Positions 1-19,920 of a DNA stretch of 20,000 nucleotides are shown here, in pieces. A model generated the notes under the pieces. That model made no database searches and was not told the DNA's origin. It saw only the letters and a program-made list of their open reading frames with translations. Positions within the stretch are counted from its first letter, which is position 1. Every line of letters starts with the position of its first letter. The stretch is taken from the IMG/VR virus record IMGVR_UViG_3300029305_004206; one strand, written 5' to 3'. This DNA is from an uncultured virus (IMG/VR IMGVR_UViG_3300029305_004206). Its lineage: Duplodnaviria; Heunggongvirae; Uroviricota; Caudoviricetes. Position numbers and translations under genes: made by a program.

Positions 1-1071
1 GTCATATTTATTATAATAATATTTAGTCTTATCGTGATCTTCGTTTCCACCCATATCTATAAATGAATCTTCATATCCAGTTCCTATATTAAATGAACCA
101 TTACTATAATTAAATGCTTTTTTAATTCCTTGTATAGATAATACCTTTATATCATTACCATAAATTTCTTTATTTAATTGATCTTCTGGTATTATCGTAA
201 CATCATTATTTAAACGAATGACATATCTCTTATTATCATGATCAGTATAACAACCAAGATTAAATGGAGTATCGTTTGCAGCATCAGCTATATTAATTAA
301 TACATTTTCATATTCTTTATTAGATACATTTACAGTAGTTAAATCTTTAGATAAGATATAAAGATAATTAAAATCTTGATACAATCTTAATCCCAACTTG
401 TATATACCATAAACATTTTGTAAATAATAAATAGAACTTGCAAACTGTAATGGTGGAATTACAATTTGTCGATAAGCAGTTGAATTATTTGGATTATCTA
501 TAATTACAGAATCACAACCTATTTTATTTAATATATACCCGATTGCATTATAAATATCTACATTATTTAATACTGTATTTACGATAGTTTTACTTTTATC
601 AAAGTGAGATGTATTAAATAAGTAAACATCTGTAGTCCTTGAGTATTCATTAGATTCATTAGTTTTATCTTCATCTACTCTTGATGGATGATTTTCTAAT
701 TCTTCTAATGGATTTTTTGTACAATCAATATAAATTGGTTGGAATACCATATCTGTTATTATATCTTCACCAAATGTATCAAAAGATGAGAAATATGTTT
801 TATCTGGATCTCTATCTTCTAAAAATTCAACCTTATTTATAGATATTTTAAATTTAACTTTTGTTTTTTGTTCTTGTAACTTAATCATTTCTTTATTAGT
901 AAGAGAAATAGATAATTTAGTTACAGGTAAAAAGTTTTCTTCATACTTATTATCAATAACTAAAGCAGCAACTTGTGGAGCATCTAAAGTTACAATTTCA
1001 TCAGTAAAGAGAATTGATACACTAATCATATACTTATATTGAGATATAAGATTTAATGATTCTTCAGTCAT
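1..1071 (-). CDS. Probable virion structural protein (baseplate-hub-like, phiKZ/AR9-type); truncated by the window edge and absent from the ORF track
   Basis: Manual translation from ATG at 1071 stays open to position 1 (357 codons: MTEESLNLISQYKYMISVSILF...YRQIVIPPLQFASSIYYLQNVYGIYKLGLRLYQDFNYLYIL...). SD AAAGGAG lies about 9 nt upstream, and there is an 8-nt ATGACTGA overlap with the upstream gene. The 'QIVIPP...YLQ..YGIY..G' motif recalls jumbo-phage hub-like virion proteins (recalled, not searched). Confidence 0.65.
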   Translation of the reverse strand, partial: MTEESLNLISQYKYMISVSILFTDEIVTLDAPQVAALVIDNKYEENFLPVTKLSISLTNKEMIKLQEQKTKVKFKISINKVEFLEDRDPDKTYFSSFDTFGEDIITDMVFQPIYIDCTKNPLEELENHPSRVDEDKTNESNEYSRTTDVYLFNTSHFDKSKTIVNTVLNNVDIYNAIGYILNKIGCDSVIIDNPNNSTAYRQIVIPPLQFASSIYYLQNVYGIYKLGLRLYQDFNYLYILSKDLTTVNVSNKEYENVLINIADAANDTPFNLGCYTDHDNKRYVIRLNNDVTIIPEDQLNKEIYGNDIKVLSIQGIKKAFNYSNGSFNIGTGYEDSFIDMGGNEDHDKTKYYYNKYD

Positions 1072-1407: not shown

Positions 1408-2523
1408 TTATACCCCCTCAATAAGTTCCTGAGTCATCAATGGAGAGTTCTTAAAATAAACTTCATTTACTTCCATTACACTCTGCCAGTTATTAATATC
1501 CTTTACTTGCTTCATTATATTATAATATTCTTTCTCTGTCATACTATTCTTTATAGTTTCATAATCAAACATCTTAAAATTATTTCTGATAAAACCTTTA
1601 TCATCATCAGATAAATTTTCTATATTATCTAAAATAATATCTATATCTGAATATGGAATATTTGAGATTTTACCAGAATCAATTAACTTCTCTAATGCTG
1701 TTATAGAACGAGAATAGCCAAATCCTTTTTTACCTTCAAGATTATATTTTTTATAACCTGACATAGCTAAAATTATACGATAAAAGCTGCTATCTAAAGA
1801 TGATTTATCTTTACTTTTAGTTTTAGTTAAAAGTGAATTAATTAACTCATCTTCATATATAATCTTACTATTATCAGATCTCATACTCATTACATAAGTC
1901 TTCTCAAGATTGCAACATTGATACTGAACTGTATCATTTGTCATAATAAGATTAATATAATTCTCATTACCAGAATAATCTATCATATCAGATATAGCAA
2001 AATATGGAAATACAGTATAATTGAAGGATTTAGTATTAAAGAAATATACATTTGGAATATAATCAATAATTAATTTAGCAAGTTTTATATTTTTCTTTAT
2101 AATTCCGTTAAGAGCATAATGTTCACTATTTACATCTTCATATAAAATCTTATTATAGAAATCTCTTCTATAAGTATCATTAAGAGATGTATTAAATTCT
2201 GCTTCTTTATCAGAATAATAGTAATAGAAATATGTTCTTATTCCATAACGAGACCAAAAGAAATGACGATAGTGAGCAGCGATATTTATTAACTCTGCAC
2301 ATATCTTATATTTTTCATTTACAGATATATTCTTAAAAGAATCCTGTAATGTTGATTGATAGAAGTTTGATAGAACAGAGTGAACATCTATGAATATATT
2401 CACTTCTGTAATATCACCCTGAAAGGTTTTATTTATCATCTCTTGAAATATTTTATATTTTACTTTCTTGAGATTCATAATAGGTTGAATTAAACCTATG
2501 TTTGGATTAATATCTTTATCCAC
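1408..2523 (-). CDS. 5'-3' exonuclease/flap endonuclease (PIN + H3TH)-like protein, apparently catalytically degenerate
   Basis: N-terminal strand NIFID, then IMTNDTVQYQ, then an H3TH-like LAMSGYKKYNLEGKKGFGYSRSITAL. GTG start with SD AAAGGAG. Confidence 0.6.
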   Translation of the reverse strand: MDKDINPNIGLIQPIMNLKKVKYKIFQEMINKTFQGDITEVNIFIDVHSVLSNFYQSTLQDSFKNISVNEKYKICAELINIAAHYRHFFWSRYGIRTYFYYYYSDKEAEFNTSLNDTYRRDFYNKILYEDVNSEHYALNGIIKKNIKLAKLIIDYIPNVYFFNTKSFNYTVFPYFAISDMIDYSGNENYINLIMTNDTVQYQCCNLEKTYVMSMRSDNSKIIYEDELINSLLTKTKSKDKSSLDSSFYRIILAMSGYKKYNLEGKKGFGYSRSITALEKLIDSGKISNIPYSDIDIILDNIENLSDDDKGFIRNNFKMFDYETIKNSMTEKEYYNIMKQVKDINNWQSVMEVNEVYFKNSPLMTQELIEGV

Positions 2524-3789: not shown

Positions 3790-5670
3790 TTATGTCGCAG
3801 ACTTAAGAACTTCTTTCTCTGCTAATTTCTCTGTTTCCTTTGTAATTGCATTGAAAATCTGTAGGATAATTAAATCCAAATTATTTATGTTAACATGAAT
3901 AAGTGGTTTATTATATCTTTCACAGAGTTCTTTTGTATATCTGTACATCTTATGAGAAGCATGTTTAGTATGTGTAAATACATAATCACAATTTTTAACT
4001 TGTTCAGGTTTCAAATGTAGATAATCTTCCATAGAAACTAAAGCATATAAATTAGGAATTCTTTCATTAATCATTGAAATCATATTACTATGACCACCGA
4101 TAAATACTACTTTATGTTTGTCACATAAATCTCTTATTTGTTCATTAGTGATATATGTATTTTCTTCTTTAAGAACTTTCTCCTCATCTGGAACTTTCCT
4201 TTCCAGTTCAAATATTTTGTCCTTTAAGAAAATAACTTCATCTTCCAATGAAATAATTTCTTCAGATAATTTTTTATTCTCCGATTCAACTTTATGATTC
4301 TCAGATGATAACTTCTTAACCTGTTCTTTATTATAATTATCTACAGAAACACCTTTCTCATATTCCTTGATTTTGTCGTTTAGTTCTTTGATCTCTTCAT
4401 CTTTATCATCAACAACCTGTATCAAAAGTTGACTAAAATGACATCCCATGTGATGACGGAAAATTGCATTATTACAGAATAAATAATAATCTAAATTACT
4501 TCTTCCTGTAATCTGCACTTTCAAAGCTGCTTGATAGTCTATATAACAGCTATTAATAAAGGCAACTATATCTTTCTTTCCAGACTTTTTAAAGAATACA
4601 TTTTTCTTAATCTTTGCAATACTAATTTCTCTTCCCAAAGGTTGAATATGGTAAGATATAATTGCTTCTATAATCTGCACTAAATCAAATGCAGTAGGAA
4701 GCACTTTCTTATTACTCAATACAAATGACTTTACAAGAATATTGAATAGGAGATTATACCAACTATCAACCATTAGTTCAGCACAAGAATAAAATATATT
4801 AGAAGATGCATTATCTGAAAGTAAAGTTTGATAAGAAGATTGAATATTTTGTCTTATATTAGCAAAAATTGACATATGACGATTTAATTCTTTCTTAGGA
4901 ATAAAATCATCTGGAGATATATAACCATAAATATGATGATTTAATTCTCCCCATTGATTTAACTGCATAAATTCCATTGCTTCTTTAGCATACTTATCAA
5001 TAAATTTCTTACTCTCTTCTCTCAGTTCTATGTATTGATGTGTAGCTTCTTTTACAAATTTATCTGTATTTTTATCTACATTTTTCATTTCTGCATCTGT
5101 TAATGAAGGAATCTTAGCAATACATTTATAAAGAGCAGAACTCACTTCTTCTTGCATTGCATTAACTTTATCACTTGGTCTTATTGAGAATAAGCTTCCA
5201 TCTAATGATCTATCTTTATCTCTCTGGAACCTTGCTAATAAATATATATCAATATCAGAAGAATTCATTCTTTCAGAAAATAAATCTGCCATAAAATCAA
5301 ATTCATCATCTTCAGTTGCTTTTCCTATAAATTCACATACAATATTCATATTATCTCTTGCATGTTTATCTGTTAGGAAACCACCTTCTAAATATAAAGA
5401 AATCATTCTTTTGAAGTAGTCATTTATTGCTAAACCAAGATTTGTTATCTTTGCTTCATATTTTCCTATGAGTTTAAGTTCACCTTCATAATTAAAGAAC
5501 TTTTTCATAAGTTTAATAACTTCTTCATTGACGCAATCTTTATTACAATTCTCAAGTAAATTTCTAAATTCAACAAGGTAAGATAAAGAATCAGATTTTG
5601 TTTGAAGTATTGTTAAGTATGGGATGAACTGATTATTTTTAAGAAATAAACTTTCAGGATCATTCTTCAC
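3790..5670 (-). CDS. Coiled-coil plus C-terminal DUF2325 domain protein; probably the 3' part of a gene starting at 5932
   Basis: C-terminal VVFIGGH...CDYVFTHTKHASHKMY...CERYNKPLIHV (DUF2325) is preceded by a heptad-rich segment. The GTG at 5670 has no SD, and the frame stays open up to 5748. Confidence 0.75.
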   Translation of the reverse strand: MKNDPESLFLKNNQFIPYLTILQTKSDSLSYLVEFRNLLENCNKDCVNEEVIKLMKKFFNYEGELKLIGKYEAKITNLGLAINDYFKRMISLYLEGGFLTDKHARDNMNIVCEFIGKATEDDEFDFMADLFSERMNSSDIDIYLLARFQRDKDRSLDGSLFSIRPSDKVNAMQEEVSSALYKCIAKIPSLTDAEMKNVDKNTDKFVKEATHQYIELREESKKFIDKYAKEAMEFMQLNQWGELNHHIYGYISPDDFIPKKELNRHMSIFANIRQNIQSSYQTLLSDNASSNIFYSCAELMVDSWYNLLFNILVKSFVLSNKKVLPTAFDLVQIIEAIISYHIQPLGREISIAKIKKNVFFKKSGKKDIVAFINSCYIDYQAALKVQITGRSNLDYYLFCNNAIFRHHMGCHFSQLLIQVVDDKDEEIKELNDKIKEYEKGVSVDNYNKEQVKKLSSENHKVESENKKLSEEIISLEDEVIFLKDKIFELERKVPDEEKVLKEENTYITNEQIRDLCDKHKVVFIGGHSNMISMINERIPNLYALVSMEDYLHLKPEQVKNCDYVFTHTKHASHKMYRYTKELCERYNKPLIHVNINNLDLIILQIFNAITKETEKLAEKEVLKSAT

Positions 5671-6101: not shown

Positions 6102-7628
6102 TTAATTCTTCCCATTACTTCTTAATTTATCTCTGTCAAATATTCTGACAATTCCGTATGGTTCTCTTAATGAGATGCGACCTTCTTTATGAGTTGTAAC
6201 CCATATAGTTCTGAAATGAGATGGTTTTACTGTAAGTTCAGATTCACCATAACCATCGGTTAGATATATCAAGATATCATTTTTAAGGTTATTCTTCTTA
6301 AGGTACTCAAATACAGGACTAAATTCGGTTCCACCATTACCATTACGAGTTACCTTCTTAACATCTTTTGCAGATTTAAGAATCTCTATTGACTGGATAT
6401 CAGCATCACATTGAATTACAGTTATCTCTTTATTTTTAATTCCTTTTAATATAAAGAGAATTTCATTCAAAAATGCACTCATATCATCATCAGATATTGA
6501 ACCTGATACGTCAATGGCAACTACAATTTTAACCTCATGATTAGATAATCTTCCTTTGAGTTCTATTCTATGAGGTTGTCTTCTATCATTTCTCATAATA
6601 GATTTTTTATAAGGAACTGGAACTGAACCTGCAAACTTCTTAAGATAATCTTGCCACTCTAAAACAGGTTTCTCATTAAGTTGGTTAATAATTGTCATAA
6701 TATGACTTGGAACATCACCTTTTGTCTTATTTCGAGCATCATTTAATAAACCTTTTAATGCTTCTTTAGACATTTTTCCGTCAGACTCTGACATTTCCCA
6801 ATGATGTTCAAATGGATTTTCTCCACCTTTGTTAATCATATCGTTTCTATTCTGGTATGATTTTCTGTTCCCACCAGAACCACCATTTCCTTCTCCTGAT
6901 GTTCCCTCGCCATTCCCTTCTGTATTTCCAGATTGATTGCTTTGATTTCCCAAACCATTCTTTTCAATGTATTCCTGAATCATTTGTTGCATCTGCTGTT
7001 TGATTTGTTGGAGATTTTGATGTGCTTTACTCTCTTTAATGATCTCCATATAATATTCGAAACTTTCCTTATGTTTTATAGATTGACCTTTTTCATCATC
7101 TTCATTCTGAAACATTTCTTTGAAAGTTTCTAATGTAATACTACCATCTGGCATCATAGGAAGATACTGGTTTACAACTGTGTCAAGAGCAATATTCATC
7201 TCTTCATGAGAAAACGTATTTTCAAAATCTTTCATTCTTATTGGATGTTGCCATATCATATGATATAATTCATGTTTGATAACCTGAACCATTTCAAGAA
7301 TAGATAACCTAAACAGAAAATATGGATTAAATAGAAATGTCCATTCATTATTTATAAATCCCATAGCACAAGTTTCTATTCTATAATTAACTACTCTCTT
7401 TACCTTAATTAAAATATAAGATAAAAATTCATTATCTTCTCTTAATCTATAATCAGATTGAGAAGTTGGCATTAACATAGAAAATACTACATAGTTAAAT
7501 AACTTAAGACATTTCTGTTCAAATCCAGCAGGTAATTGACTGATTCTATCAGTTTTCTCTATAATATTTAGTATTGCCTGTTTTTCTGTATTAAGGTCAT
7601 AATTCTGGTCTATAATATAATTTGCCAT
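6102..7628 (-). CDS. DUF2201-type protein: HExxH metallopeptidase-like N domain, Gly/Asn/Gln linker, vWA domain
   Basis: IKHELYHMIWQH (HExxH), MIDAS VAIDVSGS, GGTEF and YLTDGYG motifs. Adjacent to a MoxR-like ATPase. Confidence 0.9.
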   Translation of the reverse strand: MANYIIDQNYDLNTEKQAILNIIEKTDRISQLPAGFEQKCLKLFNYVVFSMLMPTSQSDYRLREDNEFLSYILIKVKRVVNYRIETCAMGFINNEWTFLFNPYFLFRLSILEMVQVIKHELYHMIWQHPIRMKDFENTFSHEEMNIALDTVVNQYLPMMPDGSITLETFKEMFQNEDDEKGQSIKHKESFEYYMEIIKESKAHQNLQQIKQQMQQMIQEYIEKNGLGNQSNQSGNTEGNGEGTSGEGNGGSGGNRKSYQNRNDMINKGGENPFEHHWEMSESDGKMSKEALKGLLNDARNKTKGDVPSHIMTIINQLNEKPVLEWQDYLKKFAGSVPVPYKKSIMRNDRRQPHRIELKGRLSNHEVKIVVAIDVSGSISDDDMSAFLNEILFILKGIKNKEITVIQCDADIQSIEILKSAKDVKKVTRNGNGGTEFSPVFEYLKKNNLKNDILIYLTDGYGESELTVKPSHFRTIWVTTHKEGRISLREPYGIVRIFDRDKLRSNGKN

Positions 7629-7652: not shown

Positions 7653-8990
7653 TTATGCTTTTAAATCATAAATTCTCTGTTCAAGAGATGTGAACCCTTC
7701 AACAAATTCAGGAATTTCAAGCATATTTTTCCAAAGCTTTGATTGTCTCTTACTACCATTAGAAGCAGTCATTTCTCTTCTCTGAATCTCGTGATAAATA
7801 GTATTAATCATATCAGTCGGGAAAGAGTGCATTACTTTAATATAAGTAAGGTATTCTTCCTTAACATACTTTCTACCATCAAGATATTTAAGAAGTCTTT
7901 CATTAAATACCAGAAGTCTGATAGGACTTTCACTCTCAACATATTCTGCTACTTCTTCGTTAAGATCGTCACTCATCTTCTTAATGAGATTTTCTTTAGC
8001 GAACACTTCTTCAGGAGTCATCATTTTCTTAGCTTTCTCTTTTGTAAAGTTAAGGAATTCTAAAGCAGTAGTTCCACCGATATTACCCTTAACGATATTA
8101 AAGAATATATCTTGAGATGAAATATATCCATTCTTATAAAGATAATATGCTCTCGAAACTCTTTCCCAAGCTCTTGGTGTAGGAGTTTTATCTTCTGTTG
8201 TATTGTTCACCAATACATTAAGACTTTCAGGGAATGTAGCGATATATTCAAGAATATCTGTATGGATGATTGATCCTGTATCGTTAAAGTTTGGTTTATC
8301 CTTAACAAGTGATCTAAAGTTCATCTCGATTTCCTGATTACCCCACTTAATCCATTCCTCAACATCTGTATCAAGTTCAAGGAAACAAAGTCTATCACTC
8401 TGAGCAGCATCAAGTTCCAATGTTGAGAACTCTGTATCTTTAAAATTCTCAAACTTACTTGAAGGGTTCATGGCTGCAACGATATATACATTTTCAGGAA
8501 TTTCAAATCCATTGATGTTTCTCTGAAGAATGATATTCATTAATTCCTGAAGAACCTCATTTGAACATCTGTTCAATTCATCAATGAAAAGAAGAATCTT
8601 CTTATCAGGATCTTCTTCTGTAAGCTTTCTTAAAGCTTTAATTGTATGGAATGGTGCATACTTAACTTCTCTTGAACTTGAATTTGTATTATCAATAAGA
8701 GAAGCACATTTTACAGTTTTCTGTTTCTCTGTAAGTTCTTCGTCTTTAATAATTTTATATAAACTATTTTTAAGACCTTTACTATCCATCGACAGATCTA
8801 TAAATGGCATACCCCCAGCTTCACCTTCCTTAAGAAGATTACCTTCCATAACAAAGAGTTCCATATCAAACTCTTCTGCAATATCTTTCATCATACTTGT
8901 CTTACCAATACCTGCAGTTCCAATAATTACAGGAACATCACCAGCAGTCATTGTAACTCGTATTGCTTCTTTAGCTGCACTATATTTCAT
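7653..8990 (-). CDS. MoxR-like AAA+ ATPase
   Basis: Walker A GTAGIGKT, Walker B LFIDELNR, sensor-1 AAMNP, Arg finger SDR and sensor-2-like TPRAWE. Confidence 0.92.
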   Translation of the reverse strand: MKYSAAKEAIRVTMTAGDVPVIIGTAGIGKTSMMKDIAEEFDMELFVMEGNLLKEGEAGGMPFIDLSMDSKGLKNSLYKIIKDEELTEKQKTVKCASLIDNTNSSSREVKYAPFHTIKALRKLTEEDPDKKILLFIDELNRCSNEVLQELMNIILQRNINGFEIPENVYIVAAMNPSSKFENFKDTEFSTLELDAAQSDRLCFLELDTDVEEWIKWGNQEIEMNFRSLVKDKPNFNDTGSIIHTDILEYIATFPESLNVLVNNTTEDKTPTPRAWERVSRAYYLYKNGYISSQDIFFNIVKGNIGGTTALEFLNFTKEKAKKMMTPEEVFAKENLIKKMSDDLNEEVAEYVESESPIRLLVFNERLLKYLDGRKYVKEEYLTYIKVMHSFPTDMINTIYHEIQRREMTASNGSKRQSKLWKNMLEIPEFVEGFTSLEQRIYDLKA

Positions 8991-10623: not shown

Positions 10624-10779
10624 TAAATAAAAAATTATTAGATAACAAATAAATATTGCATAATAAGTAGTGCAATGGTTTTTCTTTTTTTTACTGTTTT
10701 CATATATTCATATGAAAATGTACCTTTCGTTGATTGTACGATTTCATTTTATTCTCCGAAATATGATAAAATGAGCATT

Positions 10780-10818
10780 AATCCCCTAATGAGACATTTC
10801 GCATCTCATTAGGGGATT
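10780..10818. terminator. Perfect 15-bp hairpin with 9-nt loop downstream of the giant gene
   Basis: AATCCCCTAATGAGA-catttcgca-TCTCATTAGGGGATT lies 10 nt after the stop at 10829. The T-run is on the + strand side. Confidence 0.75.
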
Positions 10819-10828
10819 TTTGTTCTCT

Positions 10829-13800
10829 TTATGAAATTAAAGCTTGAATCATCTTCTTAAAGCCTTTTACATTGTCTGTAGTGATTTTGATTGTATCTTT
10901 ATAATATGGAGATTCTTCATAATATTTAGAAAAATCAAATCCAGGTTCAAATGTTAAGATAAATTCAAGAGTTTGATAAATTTCATTAAGAATAAATGAC
11001 TTCGCTTTAATAGCTTCATTCTGAAGTTCTTTAAACTTTTCGTTATTAGGAGTTCTCTTAGGATTAATATAATACTTTTCAATTACTATATACATAAACC
11101 AAAGTTTACATAATTCATGTTTTAATCCATCTAAGTTTTTCGCTTTCTTATATATCTTGATAAGTTTATGTGAAAGATTATATTTAGACATAAAGTCAGT
11201 CTTTTCTCTTGTCTTAATGATAAGACTTCCTTCAGCATCTATATTAAAGGATGCTTCAGAAAGATAAGAAATAACTTCTTTAATTTTTTTAATCTGAGTT
11301 TTATTTCTACTACATAACTCATTAATACTACTATCTAAATATATAGAAAGTGTTTCCTTTACTAAAGGATTTTTCTTTAACTTCTTATCAATTAATGATA
11401 ATGAGATCAATGAGAAATATTTATATTCAGTATTTTTCTCAACAAACTCAATCATCTTGCGATATGATAAGAAAACTTGTTTACAAGATAGATTATTTCG
11501 TACTATATACTTTTCTTTAGTATCTGCTAATGCACGAATTTCTTCTTCAGTATATAATAAATATCCTGATTTAATATATTTAAGAGCTTCCTTAGAACTA
11601 TCAAACACATTATATTTATCCATATTTTTCTTGAAAAGCTTCAAGAAATCTTTAGTCTGATTATATGAAATTATATTATGCACAATATGATAATCACTAT
11701 CAAATTTAATACAATCCATAATATATCCAATTAGAGATCTTTCTCTAATAACGACTGGTTCAGATTTTAATAATGATGAGTCAAAGAATACAACTCCAGA
11801 TCCATAGATTATCATTCTCTGTCCTTTATATCTTTCTTTAATAAAGTTAAAGAGATTATAATAGAAGTTATAATAATCTTTTTCTTTAAATTTGATATCC
11901 TGCTTCTCCATCATTTCGATCTTAAGATCATCAAGATTTCTCATAAAGCAATTATATTGCTTTGTATAGTCTGCGATTGCACTTTCATCTGTGAATCCAG
12001 TAATCCAAAGAATATCTTTATCTTTTTCTAACCAAAGATCGATATTATATTCTCTATCATCTTCACCAAAGAATACTTGACCTTCAGAAAACACATTAAG
12101 ATTTTCTTTAGCATAATTATCTAAAGAAATCTCTCTATTAAGATAAGCACATTCATCAAATAAGAAACCTTCTGATGGCATATCATAGTCTAAATCATTA
12201 ATAGACTGATCTGCAGATAATTCATCTAAATAAGATAAATCAGGTTTATTATTTTGAGAAGAACCAGACACATTTGCAGCTAAACCTGCAATAGATGATT
12301 CCATAAACGCAGCTTCAGGAGCATGAATAACAAGATAAGTCTGTAAATTTGAGGGGTTCATATCCATCTCAACTTTACATCTTAATTCTTTAGCCATTTC
12401 ATCTACAAATTGATGAAGTTTAGCTTGAACTTGTAAGAAAGTTTTAGAAGATGAATAAGCTGGATCTCTCATAGTATTATATCTTTCATACTCGAATAGA
12501 TATAATTTACATTCATGGATATCTCCCATAATGTATCTATCATAATCCATTTCCATTCCTAATTTTCTTACGAAACCTCTTTTAAGTATCTTGAAATCAT
12601 ATTTATTAATGAGATTTTTATAGGATTTGGTTGCAGCTTGTAATTGCTTTCTCCTTAATTTACCATCCACATCAAGAACTGATGCTTCACTATATTGGTA
12701 TTCATAATAATTATCTTTAGGAAGATTTACATTTGCATTTCTTAAGTATTCTTCAAAAGAGTAAACTCTCTTTGTATGACCTAAGAATACATTAATATGC
12801 TGACCTGATTTTTTCAAATCAAAATGAGAATTAAGATAATCTTTGTGATAATGACCACATATATTAATCAGATTATTATCTACTGGATAATGAGTAAATA
12901 TAATTCCTTTATAATTTATACGATGAGCCATCTTTTTAACACCAAGTTCAGCATATTCATCGTTAGATAATAAATCGTGATTACCAAATACAAGCCAAAT
13001 ATTCTTACATTTTAATGAGTCTAAGAATTCTTTTGTTCGTTTATAGATACATTCATCTTTCTTATAACCAATATCACCTAATATTAAGAGTGTGTCATTT
13101 TCATGTACATCTCTATTTATGATTTCGATAGCTTCATTCATAGGAACTATGTCTTCATCTTCTCTCCCAATATGAATATCAGATGTAATAAATAAATTTT
13201 CTGGAAGCTCATCTAAAGTTATCTCTATAACTTCATCCATCATTATATCTTTCTTTACTCTATTTTGATTTATATTTCCACCGAATTCATATAAAGGCTC
13301 TGGATTAATTCTATAAGCCTTTTCTTTAGATTCATTTCTGAACATTTCAGGTCTATCATCCTCAGAATGATATTTTACATTTAAAGATCCAGAATTATAC
13401 TTTAATTCAAAATATCCTTCATCTAATTCTCTCATAGCTATATAAGAATGATCATTAGATGAACGATTTTTGTTTACTATTCTGTAACCTGTAAAATGTG
13501 CAAGACCAGATGGGTATAAGAAAGTTTTATCTCTTTCTTGAATCTCTAAAAGTCTCTTTAATTCATTCTTTTCTTGTTCCTTTACAGTAAGAATAGGATC
13601 TATTTTATTATCTAAAGATATAGAAATTACACTTCCGTCTTCTGATAAAGATTTAAGTTCTTTAGACTTTAATCTCCATTCTTCTGTTGAGTAGAATATA
13701 AGTCTCTCCATAATATTATTATATGAAGCAAAGTCACCTAACTTACCTTTCTTGAATTCTTTAAATAATTTCATAATCTCTTCAAAAGGTACATATTTTA

Positions 13801-16800
13801 TATATCCTGCTATATCTTTATATGAATATACATATATCTTATCTGGTTTAACTTCAATATCTAATGTATATTCCTTTGCAGCTACATTATGTCCTCTTCC
13901 AATATACTTCTTATCAATAGTTTTTTCATATAAATAATAATTAGATTTCTTAAGAATTCTTTCTACTTCATCTTTATATTCTCTTGCTATGATAATACCA
14001 TTTCCTTCATATAAAGGAGTTAAAGTACATATAGAATCATTAAAATTATCTGTAATAACCTGATGAATAGCAAACATAAGGGGTTCTTCTTTATCTAAAC
14101 ACCAAAAAGATGATAATCTTAGGGAAGATAATTTTGTACCAATATTTCTTGCTGTTGGTTTAATTGTACTTAACTTTAATGATGAACCATGATATAAAGT
14201 TACACTTTTTGGAAGGAAAGGTTTTGTAAGTGTTGTTTCTATAGATTCAGAAAGTTTACGAAGTTCATTTATTCTTCCATTAATATGAGGAGCAACTTTC
14301 TTATCATAATATTCTATTGTAAGATCAATATCCTTACTTGTTACTCCTTTCTTTATTAAATTGTCTAATAGACGATTTTTCTTTTCAGGATTTTTTCTAT
14401 ACTTTTCAAGATTTTCCTTTAATTTAGTAAATTGTCTTTTAGCCAAATATAAATCTTTTCGCATATATTCTAAATCTTCTATTTTCTTAGTCTTATCAAT
14501 AAGATTATAGAAACCAGGATATTCATGTTTCTTTAAAATTTCCCACATTTCTAAACGAGGATGAATTTTAAGAGCCATAAATGTTTGACTTAAAGTATAT
14601 TCTTGTAATAAATCTGCATTTTCATTAAGACTCATTGTAATAGTGGTTTCTCCTTCATCTATTTTCTTAAATCCATGCTTATTATAAAGATGAATCGCTA
14701 TTTCATTATCCTTATATACATGAAGACTTTTAGCATCCATTTTCTTTACAGCATAATCAAGAATCTGATCTGATAGACCATGATTTCTATATTCTGGATA
14801 TACATATAATGGACAAATAAATCCATCACAAACCATAATATACGCAACAGGTTTATTTTTATCTATAAATAGATAGCCTTTTGTATTATACTTTAAAAGA
14901 TTATTAACTTTTTCTTTATCCCATCTTTTATCATCCTTAAGATAAGATAAGAATGAAGAGTCTGATAAAGATATTTTCTTATAAGAATTTAAATTATATC
15001 TTTCTTTAGGTTTATAACTTTTATCTAAAGTAGATTTATCATTAGACTCTTGAATCAATGGGTCAAAATTATCTACACTACTCATAACCAAACAATTTGC
15101 ATTGTCAGTTATAGCATCTTTATAAGCATAGTTCTTTAATATAATACCAGATTCACTTTTATTTTCCATTTCACGTTTTTTCTGTTGTTCTTCTAATTTT
15201 TGCTTAAGATAATTAACAGAACGTGTTTGTGTATCTGTGTTATATTTAATTGCATTTGATATGGATTTACAAGCTTTACTAATCTCTACATTAATCTCGT
15301 TGATATCATTAACAGACTTTTCTTGAACAGAAACCTTAGAACCATCTGGAGAAACATTGATAAACCCAACTTTAACTGGTTTTTTGGTTTTAGTTGATTT
15401 ATCGCCAGATATTTTTTCTTTAATTTTTAGAAAGAAATCTTTAATTTTATTCCATATCCACCTAAAGAATTCTATAACTTTTTTCCATAGATATACAATA
15501 AATTCAACAAGTTTTTTTCCTATATCTTTAATACTGTCTAAAAATTTTCCTTCGAGAAGAATATTTTCATCTAAAGAATTAACATATTCAAATGATTCAA
15601 TAAGTATTTCATCATTAAAATAATCTATACCATTTTCCTTACAGAAAGATATAAGATTATCTCTTGCTTCATTTAAAGAAATCATTATTTCATCAGTTGA
15701 ATCTTCTAATAAAGTTTCTATTTCTATATCTTCTGCCCACATAGACACTGTACCATGAAATATCTTAACATCTTTAGCTTTTTGGATATCTTTTGCTAAT
15801 TCATGGTGACCAGGATTACATGATTGGATATAAATATTTTTAAATCCATCTTTTATTAATCGTCTTACTAGTGCATTTACTTCTTGATATTCCTTCCCAT
15901 GATACTTAATTGGTTGAATTGTCCATAATTGAACTTCTTTAACAGACGAAGCAGATTTATTAATTTTTTCATCTTCTTCGTTATCATCATAATCTTCAAA
16001 TTTTTCAGACTTTTCTTTTATATATTTAGTATATTTCTGGTTAAATTCGTAAAGGTTAGCAAGACGTATAAGATCGTATGTTTTGTTATTATAATCAATA
16101 TCAGTTGTCATTGAAGTGATATTCATTTCAAAATTCATAATCTCTTCAAGTTTATTCTTTCCAAATTTTTCCCAAATTTTTTCTATAATTAATTTTGAAA
16201 GTCTAATATAAGTTTCTAGAATTTCTTTACATTCATTTTTAAATTTTTCTTTTTCAGAAGAAGAATATTTATAAACCTTATCTCCTCCTTCACCTTGCGT
16301 TGAATTTACTATTCTATCAAGAAATTCTTCTCTTTCGTCATCATCATAATTTTCATCAAACATTTTTCTAAGAACCGTTAAAAATTTACCAATGTATTCA
16401 TTATCAGAACCACCATTATGCAAATCATAAATACGATTAAAGAATTTTTCGATATCATCTGGATTAACTAAAGATGAAAGTTCAGAATAATTACGAAATT
16501 CTGAGTCTTTCCTTGATTTTTCCATATTTTTTCGTCTTTGATTTTTTTCAATCAATTCTGTATTAGTTTCATCATTTCCATGACAAATAACCATACAATC
16601 ATATCTAGATATTTTTTGTAACCATTGTGAAGCAAAGTTATCTTTATTAAGTTGTGTTTCTGCACCTTCGAAATTTGTAGTTCCAAGAATTAATGGACCA
16701 CCAACTTTCCTTAAGTCAATAGTTCCTGCTTCCTTATCAACACATTTATCATATAAATTTGTAATTTTATTATTGATAGCTTCTCTTGCTTTTTGTTGTC

Positions 16801-17671
16801 TCTCTGTATCGTCACTTTCGATATCTTCTATTAAAGCAAAAGCTTCTTTTGTAGAGAATCCCATTGACTTATAATTAAGTCTAAGAAATTCAACCAAATA
16901 GGATTTCATTGTTTTATTAAATGCAATTTTAGCTGTAATAAATGCTCTTAATTCATTTTCGTTAGCAGAATCAACATTTGGCATGAAGTTTTTATTTAAA
17001 AAATTCTCTATATCACTTTCAGAAAAACCTGCTTCTGATAAAGTTTCTAGAGCACCCTTTAAATGACTTATTGAAGAGTGAACTGATGGAAAGAAATCTG
17101 AGGAGTAATGACTATTTTCCGCTTCTTTCTCAACTTTTTGTACTAACTTTTCAATCTGTCCTTGAAAGAATAATTGAAAATCTTCACAAAGATTTTTAGA
17201 TGCTAATAATTCTTCCATTCTTTTAGTTTCCCAGTCTGCAATATTCTTACTCATTATATCTTCTATAAAATCAGAATTTTGCATACCATAACCAATATTA
17301 GAATCATCATCATCATTATTTGAATAGGTTTCTTTATCCTTATCTTTACTTTTTCTAATATAGTCCTCAACATCTTCGACTCTTCGCTTTTCATTGGTAA
17401 TTTCAGCTTCAGATAAATTAACACTTTCATCTATATTGTCATCAGTAAATGGACTACTTGGAATATAATTAAAGAATCTATTCTTTTCGCTTACCTTAAT
17501 ATCAGTTATATTAAAATATGCCAAACGATTTAAAAGATTTTTAGCAAGAGTTTCTTCGTCTTCCTCGTCTACATAGTTAAAGAACTTAACTGCAGAACGA
17601 ACATGCTTCTCTGTATCCAAAGGAAACTTTCTTTTAGAAGGAACTCCATAAAACATTTCTTTTTCTGACAT
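10829..17671 (-). CDS. 2280-aa polyvalent protein, probably virion-packaged: DUF6582-like, clan-CD peptidase-like, internal-head-like helix, GNAT, ART-like, calcineurin-like phosphoesterase and degenerate P-loop modules
   Basis: Motifs in order: YGVPSKRKFPLDTEKHVRSAVKFF; VICHG...IQSCNPG; LLEGKFLDSIKDIGKKLVEFIVYLWKKVIEFFRWIWNKIKDFF; LYVYPEYRNHGLS...NEIAIHLYNKHGF; LYHGSS...SSFW...KEYT; SDIHIG/LGDIG/GNHD/THYP/GHYH; ILWITGF. SD AAAGGATGTG. Confidence 0.85.
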   Translation of the reverse strand: MSEKEMFYGVPSKRKFPLDTEKHVRSAVKFFNYVDEEDEETLAKNLLNRLAYFNITDIKVSEKNRFFNYIPSSPFTDDNIDESVNLSEAEITNEKRRVEDVEDYIRKSKDKDKETYSNNDDDDSNIGYGMQNSDFIEDIMSKNIADWETKRMEELLASKNLCEDFQLFFQGQIEKLVQKVEKEAENSHYSSDFFPSVHSSISHLKGALETLSEAGFSESDIENFLNKNFMPNVDSANENELRAFITAKIAFNKTMKSYLVEFLRLNYKSMGFSTKEAFALIEDIESDDTERQQKAREAINNKITNLYDKCVDKEAGTIDLRKVGGPLILGTTNFEGAETQLNKDNFASQWLQKISRYDCMVICHGNDETNTELIEKNQRRKNMEKSRKDSEFRNYSELSSLVNPDDIEKFFNRIYDLHNGGSDNEYIGKFLTVLRKMFDENYDDDEREEFLDRIVNSTQGEGGDKVYKYSSSEKEKFKNECKEILETYIRLSKLIIEKIWEKFGKNKLEEIMNFEMNITSMTTDIDYNNKTYDLIRLANLYEFNQKYTKYIKEKSEKFEDYDDNEEDEKINKSASSVKEVQLWTIQPIKYHGKEYQEVNALVRRLIKDGFKNIYIQSCNPGHHELAKDIQKAKDVKIFHGTVSMWAEDIEIETLLEDSTDEIMISLNEARDNLISFCKENGIDYFNDEILIESFEYVNSLDENILLEGKFLDSIKDIGKKLVEFIVYLWKKVIEFFRWIWNKIKDFFLKIKEKISGDKSTKTKKPVKVGFINVSPDGSKVSVQEKSVNDINEINVEISKACKSISNAIKYNTDTQTRSVNYLKQKLEEQQKKREMENKSESGIILKNYAYKDAITDNANCLVMSSVDNFDPLIQESNDKSTLDKSYKPKERYNLNSYKKISLSDSSFLSYLKDDKRWDKEKVNNLLKYNTKGYLFIDKNKPVAYIMVCDGFICPLYVYPEYRNHGLSDQILDYAVKKMDAKSLHVYKDNEIAIHLYNKHGFKKIDEGETTITMSLNENADLLQEYTLSQTFMALKIHPRLEMWEILKKHEYPGFYNLIDKTKKIEDLEYMRKDLYLAKRQFTKLKENLEKYRKNPEKKNRLLDNLIKKGVTSKDIDLTIEYYDKKVAPHINGRINELRKLSESIETTLTKPFLPKSVTLYHGSSLKLSTIKPTARNIGTKLSSLRLSSFWCLDKEEPLMFAIHQVITDNFNDSICTLTPLYEGNGIIIAREYKDEVERILKKSNYYLYEKTIDKKYIGRGHNVAAKEYTLDIEVKPDKIYVYSYKDIAGYIKYVPFEEIMKLFKEFKKGKLGDFASYNNIMERLIFYSTEEWRLKSKELKSLSEDGSVISISLDNKIDPILTVKEQEKNELKRLLEIQERDKTFLYPSGLAHFTGYRIVNKNRSSNDHSYIAMRELDEGYFELKYNSGSLNVKYHSEDDRPEMFRNESKEKAYRINPEPLYEFGGNINQNRVKKDIMMDEVIEITLDELPENLFITSDIHIGREDEDIVPMNEAIEIINRDVHENDTLLILGDIGYKKDECIYKRTKEFLDSLKCKNIWLVFGNHDLLSNDEYAELGVKKMAHRINYKGIIFTHYPVDNNLINICGHYHKDYLNSHFDLKKSGQHINVFLGHTKRVYSFEEYLRNANVNLPKDNYYEYQYSEASVLDVDGKLRRKQLQAATKSYKNLINKYDFKILKRGFVRKLGMEMDYDRYIMGDIHECKLYLFEYERYNTMRDPAYSSSKTFLQVQAKLHQFVDEMAKELRCKVEMDMNPSNLQTYLVIHAPEAAFMESSIAGLAANVSGSSQNNKPDLSYLDELSADQSINDLDYDMPSEGFLFDECAYLNREISLDNYAKENLNVFSEGQVFFGEDDREYNIDLWLEKDKDILWITGFTDESAIADYTKQYNCFMRNLDDLKIEMMEKQDIKFKEKDYYNFYYNLFNFIKERYKGQRMIIYGSGVVFFDSSLLKSEPVVIRERSLIGYIMDCIKFDSDYHIVHNIISYNQTKDFLKLFKKNMDKYNVFDSSKEALKYIKSGYLLYTEEEIRALADTKEKYIVRNNLSCKQVFLSYRKMIEFVEKNTEYKYFSLISLSLIDKKLKKNPLVKETLSIYLDSSINELCSRNKTQIKKIKEVISYLSEASFNIDAEGSLIIKTREKTDFMSKYNLSHKLIKIYKKAKNLDGLKHELCKLWFMYIVIEKYYINPKRTPNNEKFKELQNEAIKAKSFILNEIYQTLEFILTFEPGFDFSKYYEESPYYKDTIKITTDNVKGFKKMIQALIS

Positions 17672-17698
17672 ATCTTCACATCCTTTCTTTATTATTTT
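17671..17698. repeat. 28-bp direct repeat, copy 1 (RBS of the giant gene plus stop of the ART gene)
   Basis: tatcttcacatcctttctttattatttt, identical to 18618-18645. Confidence 0.95.
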
Positions 17699-18616
17699 TC
17701 AAATAAGTATAGATAGTTTTCAGGTATTTTTAAATCTTTATAGTGAAAAGAATTTAATTTTAACGAATAACCAACTACTATAAAATACTTTTCAGAAATT
17801 TCTTTCATTAGCTCTAATTGTATTGAATCATCTTTTTCTTTCATAGCATATTTAATTGCTGTATTAAAGAATTCAATTAGTTTTTCATTGTTTTTCTTCT
17901 GAGGTTCATTATAATAAGGAAATCCTATTCCATCATCATATTTCTTTTCATCTTTTTTAGAAATTTTTTCTTGTTCTTTTTTAATTATAAAATTATTGTA
18001 TTCATCTTTAGATAAATATTTTATATATTTTTTAAAATAATTATATTTAAGAACTTCTTTAGTATCTGGTACTACTTCTCTATCAATAGTATATTCACTT
18101 GAATTGTGCCATCCTGCACCAGTTTTATATCCTTTAATTTTTAATCCATATAAATAGATAGGATTATTGTCTATATATTTTCTAATAACACTTTCAGGTG
18201 CTATATCCGAATTTATATAAAAGATTCCACCAGATTCTCTACGGTATTTTTTGTATATTTTAGTTCTTTCTTTTCTATCTCGATCTAAAGTTAAATCAAT
18301 ATTCTCTTTATTTATAACAAAAGATGTTAAAGCAATTCTTAAACCATATATATCACACCATTCTTTTTCTCCAGCAATCCAAAAAGAAGAAAATCTCGGT
18401 TTGGATAATTTAGTACCTGGATTAAAAGAATAAGGTTTAATCGTCTCTGTATTATATTCAGATACTCTCCATAATTGTATCTTTGAAAAAAAACTCTTTT
18501 GGTCCATGAGCTATTAATGATTCAAATTTTTCATTTAATATTTCTTCTGATGGATTTACAGATTTTAAGAATAATGAATTTTCTTTAAGTTCTTTTTGAT
18601 TTTCATTTAAAACCAT
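17692..18616 (-). CDS. Stand-alone ADP-ribosyltransferase-like protein with MVLNENQ leader, interrupted by a frameshift in a T8 run (track ORF 17692-18507 is the 3' part)
   Basis: The SD-led ATG at 18616 gives MVLNENQKELKENSLFL...GPKEFFFKDTIMESI* (stop at 18458). Removing one T at 18486-18493 joins it to FSKIQLWRVSE...SSFW...SEYTID (307 aa), which is clearly homologous to the ART-like module of the giant protein. Confidence 0.7.
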
Positions 18617-18617
18617 T

Positions 18618-18645
18618 TATCTTCACATCCTTTCTTTATTATTTT
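18618..18645. repeat. 28-bp direct repeat, copy 2 (RBS of the ART gene)
   Basis: Identical to 17671-17698. Confidence 0.95.
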
Positions 18646-18648
18646 CAT

Positions 18649-18660
18649 TAATAGTAAGTT
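18649..18660 (-). promoter_or_regulatory. Putative late promoter AACT-N6-TA
   Basis: AACT-TACTAT-TA lies between the hairpin and the RBS repeat. Similar motifs occur at 19946-19957 and 19272-19284. Confidence 0.4.
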
Positions 18661-18686
18661 CCGAATATGATTTTAAGGATTAATAT

Positions 18687-18719
18687 TCCCCTATGAGTCG
18701 TTTAATAACTCATAGGGGA
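18687..18719. terminator. Perfect 12-bp hairpin with 9-nt loop, sequence-related to the 10780-10818 hairpin
   Basis: TCCCCTATGAGT-cgtttaata-ACTCATAGGGGA lies 6 nt after the stop at 18726. Confidence 0.75.
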
Positions 18720-18725
18720 TATAAA

Positions 18726-19220
18726 TTATCTTTCTGAAGTTCTGTTAATAGTTTCTTTAATTTTATTAGCCATTTCTTCGAATTCTTTTTTCTTCTTAGG
18801 ATCTTTAGTTTTCGCTGCAACTCGCTGTAAATCTTCCATAATATAAATTGCATCTTTTTTACAATCTTCATATTCAGATGTTTCAGCTAAGTGTACTAAA
18901 GCACGATCAATAGCTGCGACAATCCACCCAAAGAATAGAGAAAAAGGTCCAAAGATAATTTGTAAGGTAGCATCCAAATTGAAGTAAACCTGAACTATTT
19001 TTCTAAATACACTTAAGCCTTGAGATCTATTTGATCTAATACTAAATTCATCGTTACTTCTTGCAATTCTTTCTGCTTTTTCAATATCTCTCTTTAGAGC
19101 TTCAATATCTGGATGATCCTTTGCAAAATTTCTAAAGCTTCCCCAGAAATCATACTTTACAGCTTCTGAAAGGAACATAGAATTTTCCTGAAGAATTCTC
19201 TGGTTTTCATTTAAAATCAT
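18726..19220 (-). CDS. MILNENQ-leader protein with a hydrophobic segment; putative internal head/ejected protein
   Basis: MILNENQRILQENSMFLSEA leader, hydrophobic LQIIFGPFSLFFGWIVAAI, and a C-terminal charged helix. SD AAAGGGAG. Confidence 0.75.
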   Translation of the reverse strand: MILNENQRILQENSMFLSEAVKYDFWGSFRNFAKDHPDIEALKRDIEKAERIARSNDEFSIRSNRSQGLSVFRKIVQVYFNLDATLQIIFGPFSLFFGWIVAAIDRALVHLAETSEYEDCKKDAIYIMEDLQRVAAKTKDPKKKKEFEEMANKIKETINRTSER

Positions 19221-19305: not shown

Positions 19306-19920
19306 TTATTTTTTCCTTCCACTAGCTAAAAATACATTTGACCCTATTTCAAAATCTTTAGAATCAACAAAACTGTTTTTCCAAACATAATGAAGATATA
19401 CTTCAACTTCATTATTTTTTACTTTATGAGTAATTATTGCGGAATATAATGGATAAATTTTACTATCATTACCTTCTACAAACTGGGTGAATATAGTACA
19501 ATGTTCTTCATTAGTCTTGCTATTCTTAAATGTAAGAAGAGTTGCATAGAGACCATCATTAATAATTTCATCTGTAATATGACGAGCTACATAAAGTGCG
19601 GTAGAACCTTCATCAGAATCCATTTTTGAAATAATTAAATTCTTAGATTTTAAATTTCTTTCTATATTATTGATGTCCTTTAGAATTTTATTTATTTCAT
19701 CATTATGTGTTGGTGTTTTAGAAAATAAGCCTTCTGATAAAAATACATCTTCCTTTAGAATTTTATTTCTTAAATCTTTAATCTTATTATTAACAGCTGA
19801 TATAACTATATCTCTCTTTTTCTTAAATCTAACAGGAACAGATCTGAAGAAATCCCTAATACCTTCATTAAGAAAAATAGATTCAGATTTAAGGTTAATC
19901 TGGTTTTCATTAAGTATCAT
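19306..19920 (-). CDS. MILNENQ-leader protein; putative internal head/ejected protein
   Basis: MILNENQINLKSESIFLNEG leader with an internal echo ILKEDVFLSEG. SD AAAGGAAGTG. Confidence 0.75.
   Translation of the reverse strand: MILNENQINLKSESIFLNEGIRDFFRSVPVRFKKKRDIVISAVNNKIKDLRNKILKEDVFLSEGLFSKTPTHNDEINKILKDINNIERNLKSKNLIISKMDSDEGSTALYVARHITDEIINDGLYATLLTFKNSKTNEEHCTIFTQFVEGNDSKIYPLYSAIITHKVKNNEVEVYLHYVWKNSFVDSKDFEIGSNVFLASGRKK

Follow-up and report, generated by a model that had tools for sequence, protein, structure and literature searches.

A 20,000-nucleotide stretch of DNA from an uncultured virus of the Caudoviricetes (IMG/VR record IMGVR_UViG_3300029305_004206; hereafter the window) contains a gene for a giant protein, P0001, in which unrelated modules are strung together. 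In this study, we classed P0001 as a polyvalent protein on gene-level evidence, since it is phage-encoded, includes two unrelated enzymes, and is built of domains that are reshuffled in its relatives. As judged by comparison with these relatives, the joints between the modules carry a conserved Glu-[Ser/Ala/Gly] motif of the T4 gp21 type. We propose, giving the idea roughly even chances, that P0001 is a polyvalent cargo protein of a jumbo phage related to AR9 and PBS1, which would be packaged in the head, cut, and injected.

In the proposed mechanism, the hub of the chain (module A) would be distantly related to the internal head (ejection) proteins of the phiKZ type. GNAT acetyltransferase, metallophosphoesterase, and unknown-fold modules would be fused to this hub, and a conserved C-terminal module would close the chain. 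The chain would enter the prohead core, where a prohead protease of the T4 gp21 type would cut after Glu at joints of the form [L/I/hydrophobic]-x-E↓[S/A/G] (the arrow marks the candidate cut). Cutting would yield some 8 to 10 fragments, most of them basic, along with a few acidic linkers. These fragments would be ejected with the DNA and act early, and the acetyltransferase and the phosphoesterase may modify host proteins or degrade nucleotide signals.

Modules of the giant protein and their order in relatives

The modules of P0001 are listed in Table 1. The gene forms a continuous frame, as an earlier reading made from the letters of the window (the sequence-only reading) had described, and an identical protein was recorded on two contigs, the longest being 77,294 bp. 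That reading had claimed a cocktail of unrelated effectors, and two of its enzymes were borne out by profile scans. The GNAT acetyltransferase matched PF00583 at aa 921-1001 with 38 bits (cut-off 20.7), and its acetyl-CoA motif R/Q-x-x-G-x-G/A/S was intact as RNHGLS from aa 962. The metallophosphoesterase matched PF00149 at aa 1494-1636 with 29.2 bits (cut-off 21.5) and phrog_547 with an E value of 1.7e-17. Its four metal motifs were all complete (DIH1498, GD1532, GNHD1563, and GHYH1606).

Two further calls found no such support. The stretch from H1161 to E1267, which had been taken as ADP-ribosyltransferase (ART)-like, matched no ART profile in Pfam (E<=10), NCBIfam (E<=1), or PDB (E<=10); it is nonetheless a discrete module. 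The stand-alone protein P0009 (218 aa) was 50% identical across its whole length to the module at aa ~1140-1345 and retained the equivalents of H1161 and E1267, in a comparison of two sequences with P0009 as the sole homologue. Among 155 related proteins, the module was common to P0009 only. The likeness of an LYHGS string in this stretch to P0003 was not significant and was set aside. The supposed degenerate P-loop had no Walker A motif, and the P-loop hidden Markov model (HMM) of the relatives scored 0.0 bits at aa 1868-1937. Since neither the ART nor the P-loop call was supported, the cocktail consists of two identified enzymes, a conserved Cys/His module, and modules of unknown fold. Profile scans with Pfam and NCBIfam gave no family match for aa 1018-1142, and PDB sequence searches with P0001 and with alignments A3 and A2 gave no meaningful match.

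The N-terminal DUF6582-like module was detected by a local HMM (E 4e-31) and by BLAST matches in P0003 and P0005. This module is N-terminal in P0001 and internal in 16 relatives. Searches of AR9 and phiKZ found neither DUF6582 nor the C-terminal module, and DUF6582 had a single marginal match among the phages searched.

A mosaic of unrelated enzymes had been suggested, with the comparison of homologues for swapped modules as the way to check it. Comparison with P0002-P0008 and a scan of 40 relatives showed that the modules of P0001 recur there in different orders, which upholds that view. The fusion partners in relatives included an SNF2 helicase, a HAD hydrolase, DUF362, an endonuclease, a crotonase-like module, and further GNATs. 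In locus L003 (214-12061 of a 288-kb metagenome contig with 52% GC), the same modules were spread over five adjacent genes. Three of these encode paralogues of module A, and the others an endonuclease module and a GNAT that carries DUF6582 twice. These genes carry the same Glu-small joints although their base composition is very different. P0002, P0005, and P0052 also have in common a further module with the strings FSH..I and CS.FV, which is absent from P0001.

At least two relative loci were present in JGI metagenomes among the 586 pattern matches listed. Zero matches were obtained in 50,697 phage records by tblastn with P0001 and megablast with the window, and no relatives of P0001 were found in the IMG/VR or GTDB genome searches.

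The Glu-small joints and the prohead protease rule

The joints were compared across relatives of P0001. Among 61 relatives, 54 had Glu followed by Ser, Ala, or Gly (E[SAG]) at the C-terminal border of module A, against a background of 0.39. The controls at the same border were D[SAG] in 11/61 (background 0.30) and K[SAG] in 22/61 (background 0.38). The longer motif, hydrophobic-x-E[SAG], stood ahead of 12 of the 16 internal DUF6582 copies (background 0.20) and directly ahead of the C-terminal module in 7 of 8 cases (background 0.13). It was also present within the first 30 aa of 50 of 94 family proteins (background 0.22), and at these N-terminal sites the P3 residue was Leu in 22 and Ile in 13, while the P1' residue was Ala in 40 of the 50. 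When 18 domain-annotated proteins were examined, every one of the 25 inter-domain gaps (up to 140 aa) contained E[SAG]. The density of E[SAG] was 2.49 per 100 aa in the gaps vs 1.41 in the rest (Fisher P = 0.0013), and the Asp and Lys controls were depleted in the gaps, with ratios of 0.45-0.79. P0009 ended exactly at SLSE↓D and had LLNES near its own start.

The pattern so defined has Leu or Ile at P3, Glu at P1, and a small residue at P1'. As far as the aligned relatives tell, it coincides with the rule for T4 gp21, and the T4-type rule suggested by the sequence-only reading fits the joints. According to the part of PMC9026906 that deals with gp21, this rule is L/I-x-E and was first seen as a Glu-Ala bond. 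The phiKZ rule S/A/G-x-E, which had been offered beside it, matched only 2 of 10 module boundaries (P = 0.34) and was rejected. For SPN3US gp245, a preference for A/S/G-x-E with Ser after the cut is described in the portion of PMC10052503 on this protease. AR9 g114, annotated as a prohead core scaffold protein and protease, was gp21-like with 26.4 bits to PF03420 (cut-off 27), and no PF03420 match was found in phiKZ. The AR9 capsid precursor g117 has five L-x-E[SAG] motifs in its first 85 aa (TLKE↓S, ILGE↓G, VLSE↓A, KLVE↓G, and ILQE↓S). The propeptide of this capsid protein also fits the pattern seen at the joints.

Candidate cut sites within module A were compared in an alignment of 90 module A sequences (85 at some positions). 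E707 was kept in 90/90 sequences, and residue 708 was Gly in 67, Ser in 8, and Ala in 8 of 85, that is, small in 83/85. This site, ILLE↓G, had been among those proposed from the letters, and five more of them (NLSE↓A, LIQE↓S, KLSE↓S, SLSE↓D, and YLSE↓A) gained comparative support. SLNE↓A (668) was not supported as a site, as its Glu was kept in only 53/90 and its P1' residue was mostly Thr, Ala, or Leu. Near the proposed LLE↓D, the invariant Glu was E647 (90/90) and not E656. KSE↓S (840↓841) had not been listed before. The E88↓A89 bond was placed on the leader site of the family because aa 83-175 are collinear with family N-termini, for example that of P0035 with a modest E value of 5e-4 obtained without composition correction. 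P0002 contains YDNEVITEA, the same string as that around VITE↓A of P0003. Cuts at 88, 707, 840, 875, 1017, 1142, 1344, 1662, 1791, 1863, and 2139 would separate basic modules from acidic linkers, with predicted isoelectric points (pI) of 8.1-9.7 for the fragments and 4.1-4.2 for the linkers.

Module A, its Cys/His centre, and links to the phage head

Module A is a previously unnamed module that defines a large unannotated family. A profile made from P0001, P0002, P0004, and P0007 retrieved 255 cluster representatives (E<=1e-3), and for 143 of them the match reached E<=1e-30. They were 211-2523 aa long, and the contigs that carry some of them measured 250-325 kb. In the 40 members scanned, module A was not covered by any Pfam or PHROG family.

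The sequence-only reading had pointed to a peptidase-like HG...SC arrangement at H364 and C618. These residues proved to be nearly or fully invariant in the family: D358 was kept in 82/85 sequences, H364 in 84/85, and G365 in 82/85, while C618 and N619 were each kept in 90/90 and the P620 position in 88/90. In peptidases of clan CD, His-Gly and Cys each lie behind a hydrophobic strand, and the His comes before the Cys. A clan-CD-like order was present in module A, with MVICHG followed by IYIQSCNPG, and the spacing between His and Cys in P0002 was ~45 residues. The peptidase part of the earlier call fared less well, as module A matched no peptidase profile in Pfam, PDB, or NCBIfam scans.

These features form the basis of the chief rival to head-protease cutting, in which the Cys/His centre would be a clan-CD (C80-like) cysteine peptidase that cuts its own chain and, in trans, partners packaged along with it, in each case at the Glu-[S/A/G] joints. 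Such self-processing could take place in the capsid or after ejection and would resemble the freeing of MARTX toxin effectors by their cysteine protease domain. Besides the invariant residues and their order, this rival is favoured by the invariant E707↓G708 bond just downstream of the Cys/His core. It also gains from a language-model search of that core, in which a C80 cysteine peptidase cluster appeared at rank 2 with a score of 0.88, although this is a lead only. The peptidases of polyvalent proteins (zincin, assemblin-like, DD, and LonC) include self-processing ones, according to the section of PMC5512222 on these proteins. However, besides the empty peptidase scans, proteins that lack module A also carry these joints, namely P0003, P0005, P0008, P0009, and the GNAT protein of L003, so that cutting in trans would be needed. 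Moreover, the joint motif coincides exactly with the gp21 rule. C80 domains are known to cleave behind Leu rather than Glu, which also counts against self-processing. We regard self-processing as possible but rather unlikely. In a bolder form of the idea, which we consider improbable, module A would be a Glu-specific caspase/C80-like cysteine peptidase in jumbo-phage capsids and the hub of effector polyproteins, releasing the enzymes alone or together with the prohead protease, maybe only after ejection into the host. The chains would then be phage counterparts of the self-processing MARTX toxins, and the phiKZ internal head proteins would be relatives in which the peptidase has been lost.

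Module A also provided links to the phage head. Of 71 family members, 16 matched PF12699 (phiKZ internal head proteins) at E<=0.01, with a best E value of 5.2e-7, and every other Pfam family was matched by one member only. In the reverse direction, the module A profile was searched against the whole phiKZ genome and found gp95 (E 0.008), gp162 (E 0.005), and nothing else. Both are annotated as internal head proteins and are pfam12699 members (PMC5694885). The likeness of module A to the phiKZ internal head proteins is thus weak, reciprocal, and suggestive only. In AR9, the profile matched the virion protein g216 (E 1e-4), which adjoins g218/g220. P0129 (1995 aa), found on a contig of 101,483 bp, has the C-terminal half of module A ahead of a homologue of the AR9 virion RNA polymerase beta subunit (g189), and the fusion runs through Glu-Ser joints.

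Genomic setting, competing readings, and significance

The window had a GC content of 24-33%, and all of its long open reading frames (ORFs) were on the minus strand. Its DNA was present in four sequencing runs labelled as animal faeces metagenomes. Three neighbour genes had their best matches in AR9-like jumbo phages, and from these neighbour-gene matches the window is assigned to AR9/PBS1-like jumbo-phage DNA. The zincin-like peptidase and MoxR-like ATPase genes lie on the same strand as the giant gene, 3 kb away. A further gene at 3790-5670 (minus strand) encodes a 626-aa protein that combines a coiled-coil stretch with a DUF2325-like region at its C terminus (30.5 bits, below the cut-off of 33.6).

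Three ORFs upstream of the giant gene begin with M(I/V)LNENQ..L.ENS.FL, and two of them continue with SE↓A or NE↓G. This leader of 17-20 aa is common to all three, which are otherwise not alike; upstream genes 1 and 2 resemble each other over their first 46 residues only (E 5e-5). MIL.NE-like starts were also found in members of the module A family. By analogy, the leader resembles a capsid-targeting sequence. The relevant part of PMC9026906 describes capsid targeting sequences that the internal proteins of T4 have in common, and SPN3US gp53 and gp54 have identical N-termini. One T fewer in the T8 run of the 52-aa ORF would join this ORF to the 271-aa ORF. The T8 run is spanned unchanged, with no indel and at low depth, by contigs of two runs (X1 and X3). 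Because the contigs of the two runs agree, the T8 run is either a true site of frameshifting or slippage or a homopolymer error common to both.

Two GC-rich hairpins flank a unit made up of the 17692-18507 ORF and the giant gene. An identical 26-base leader, AATAATAAAGAAAGGATGTGAAGATA, was seen ahead of the starts of the giant gene and the 52-aa ORF (17671-17696 and 18618-18643, minus strand). The string ATCATATT(T)CGGA occurred twice (18660-18671 and 10755-10767, minus strand) where 0.01 occurrences were expected, ~15-30 bases past a GC-rich hairpin in each case. It may be a promoter element of the window phage and is unlike the AR9 early or late consensus. The AR9 early-promoter motif was not enriched in the window (13 matches vs 15.2 expected), and sigma-70-like sites were fewer than in shuffled sequences (118 vs 143.6). 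A late-promoter-like AACT-6N-TA upstream of the operon departs from the consensus and was not used.

Table 1. Features of P0001 and of the surrounding window. Residue numbers refer to P0001, positions to the window.
Feature	Residues	Position	Strand	Remarks
Giant gene P0001		10829..17671	-	Single unbroken 2280-aa frame, 268 kDa
DUF6582-like module	4-73	17453..17662	-	Pfam DUF6582 22.4 bits, below cut-off 27.3
Candidate cut site NLSE↓A	85-89	17405..17419	-	Aligned with family N-terminal leader site
Module A (hub)	136-838	15158..17266	-	Common to P0002, P0004, P0007
D358...H364-G365	358-365	16577..16600	-	Closes hydrophobic stretch YDCMVICHG
Helical Lys/Glu-rich insert between His and Cys	366-582	15926..16576	-	Missing in P0002
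C618-N-P-G	618-621	15809..15820	-	After hydrophobic stretch IYIQSCNPG
Stretch like phiKZ internal head proteins	672-810	15242..15658	-	Amphipathic helix GKKLVEFIVYLWKK...
Candidate cut site LLE↓G	705-708	15548..15559	-	Strongest candidate; family-invariant Glu, small residue next
Candidate cut site KSE↓S	838-841	15149..15160	-	C-terminal border of module A
Candidate cut site LIQE↓S	872-876	15044..15058	-	Ahead of GNAT; aligns with VITE↓A of P0003
GNAT acetyltransferase	876-1017	14621..15046	-	C-terminal end SLNE↓N
Module without family match	1018-1142	14246..14620	-	pI 9.4; ends KLSE↓S
Discrete module (earlier ART-like)	1143-1344	13640..14245	-	Flanked by KLSE↓S and SLSE↓D
Module without family match	1345-1487	13211..13639	-	Profile scans empty
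Metallophosphoesterase	1488-1662	12686..13210	-	Ends YSE↓A
Module without family match	1663-1791	12299..12685	-	Ends FME↓S
Acidic low-complexity linker	1792-1863	12083..12298	-	pI 4.1; ends FSE↓G
Module without family match (earlier degenerate P-loop)	1864-2139	11255..12082	-	Ends YLSE↓A
Conserved C-terminal module	2140-2280	10832..11254	-	Final module in 8 other proteins, always last
ORF		1-1071	-	~28% identity to AR9 g218
ORF		1408-2523	-	~28% identity to AR9 g220
Zincin-like peptidase + VWA (DUF2201)		6102-7628	-	Follows AAA ATPase, order as AR9 g028/g029
AAA ATPase, MoxR-like		7653-8990	-	32.4% identity to AR9 g028, 91% of length, E 5e-48
GC-rich hairpin		10782..10816	-	Immediately 3' of giant gene stop codon
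271-aa ORF		17692..18507	-	No family match; 20 bases upstream of giant gene
52-aa ORF		18458..18616	-	Leader MVLNENQ...; crosses T8 run 18486-18493 into next ORF's frame
GC-rich hairpin		18688..18718	-	CCCCTATGAGT...ACTCATAGGGG; upstream of two-gene unit
Upstream gene 2		18726..19220	-	Leader MILNENQ...FLSE↓A
Upstream gene 1		19306..19920	-	Leader MILNENQ...FLNE↓G

Several results weigh against the packaging and cutting of P0001. The sequence-only reading had placed the cut motif at module boundaries and in linkers, and in P0001 alone this was not borne out: 69 [LIFS]-x-E sites are present, and of the 10 boundaries defined by homology, 6 lie no more than 6 aa from such a site, compared with a mean of 3.3 for random placement (P = 0.07). 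When the motif was sharpened to hydrophobic-x-E-[SAGDN], 7 of 10 boundaries matched (P = 1e-4), but this version was defined post hoc. The placement stood across the relatives, where E[SAG] was enriched in linkers, by just 1.8-fold. Because the relatives are homologous, their motif counts are not independent, and a motif conserved at a module edge could be structural. On the side of the head, the stretch at aa 672-810 scored 21.8-23.2 bits to PF12699, under the gathering cut-off of 27, and hhalign of the family against six phiKZ proteins (gp92-97) gave a probability of 5%. P0001 begins with the DUF6582 module, without the N-terminal leader of the family, and the protease and capsid genes of the window phage lie outside the window. 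An annotated early promoter precedes the AR9 g028/g029 pair that corresponds to the zincin and ATPase genes. Finally, the SPN3US substrates of the prohead protease are described in the part of PMC10052503 concerned as losing N-terminal propeptides only and not as being cut into many enzymes. Since SPN3US gp245 removes only such propeptides, a chain cut at every joint would be new for this protease class.

The giant chain may also be packaged uncut and work whole, with the Glu-small motifs serving as helix caps or linker features. The N4 virion RNA polymerase is packaged unprocessed (PMC5512222, in its passage on this protein), and hydrophobic-x-E is very common in P0001, with 90 sites. However, only Glu is enriched, with no such effect for Asp or Lys, and Gly, Ser, or Ala almost always follows the invariant E707. 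The stand-alone homologue P0009 ends at the motif, and leaders ending in L-x-E↓A occur on unrelated proteins, which together make an uncut chain unlikely. Least probable of all, we think, is a cytoplasmic multi-enzyme made after infection and maybe cut by the zincin-VWA/MoxR pair, which would agree with the nearby position of that pair, with the early promoter of its AR9 counterpart, and with zincins being the usual processing peptidases of polyvalent proteins (same section of PMC5512222), but not with the ties of module A to internal head proteins and the virion RNA polymerase, the leader shared by the upstream genes, or the hairpin terminator between the giant gene and its downstream genes.

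Packaging followed by head-protease cutting has partial counterparts in known systems. As in the polyvalent proteins of Iyer et al. (2017, PMC5512222, in its account of these families), unrelated enzymes occur in one giant phage chain with mosaic sharing, and GNAT stands beside other protein-modifying modules; for those proteins, delivery along with the DNA and processing into separate units are predicted. Unlike them, P0001 had no Pfam match to zincin MPTase, MuF, portal, DarA-N, or LPD, and its hub is the unnamed Cys/His module with a likeness to internal head proteins. The prohead-protease-type joint motif of P0001 is not among the features that this account gives for polyvalent proteins. 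T4 IPI-III and Alt, as covered in part of PMC9026906, offer the same short leaders on unrelated proteins, the same L/I-x-E followed by a small residue, and a likewise basic cargo, and T4 Alt is an enzyme injected for host takeover. In contrast to P0001, a 268-kDa chain with internal sites and no N-terminal leader, the T4 cargo is made from separate small genes that each have a leader.

The internal head proteins of phiKZ and SPN3US (PF12699; cut by gp175/gp245; PMC5694885 and, in part, PMC10052503) are likewise jumbo-phage proteins that are paralogous and have N-terminal leaders. The likeness extends over ~140 residues, is weak and reciprocal, and includes an amphipathic helix behind a conserved Glu. 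They differ from P0001 in their S/A/G-x-E rule, and in these sources they are proteins without enzymes that lose N-terminal propeptides only. The N4 virion RNA polymerase, in the passage of PMC5512222 noted above, is also very large, multi-domain, head-packaged, and injected, but is not cut at joints and is not known to have a recurring Glu-small motif. Most of the full-text literature searching returned no published description of such cargo chains. In MARTX toxins, a C80 cysteine protease domain frees the effectors from a giant chain. They resemble P0001 as giant effector chains with a built-in His...Cys module, but belong to another host and context, and P0001 had no C80 profile match. DarB of phage P1 is another very large, multi-domain protein that is head-packaged, injected, and used intact, and it is not known to be cut at joints or to have a recurring Glu-small motif.

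If P0001 is indeed packaged and cut by the head protease, jumbo phages would deliver entire sets of enzymes for host takeover or anti-defence in the form of a single precursor, with the head protease as the releasing enzyme. This would join the fields of polyvalent proteins and capsid maturation, which have so far been studied apart. The combination of a leader and L/I-x-E↓small would provide a sequence rule to predict injected cargo in uncultured phages, and a large unannotated family of 255 cluster representatives with an invariant Cys/His centre would gain a name.

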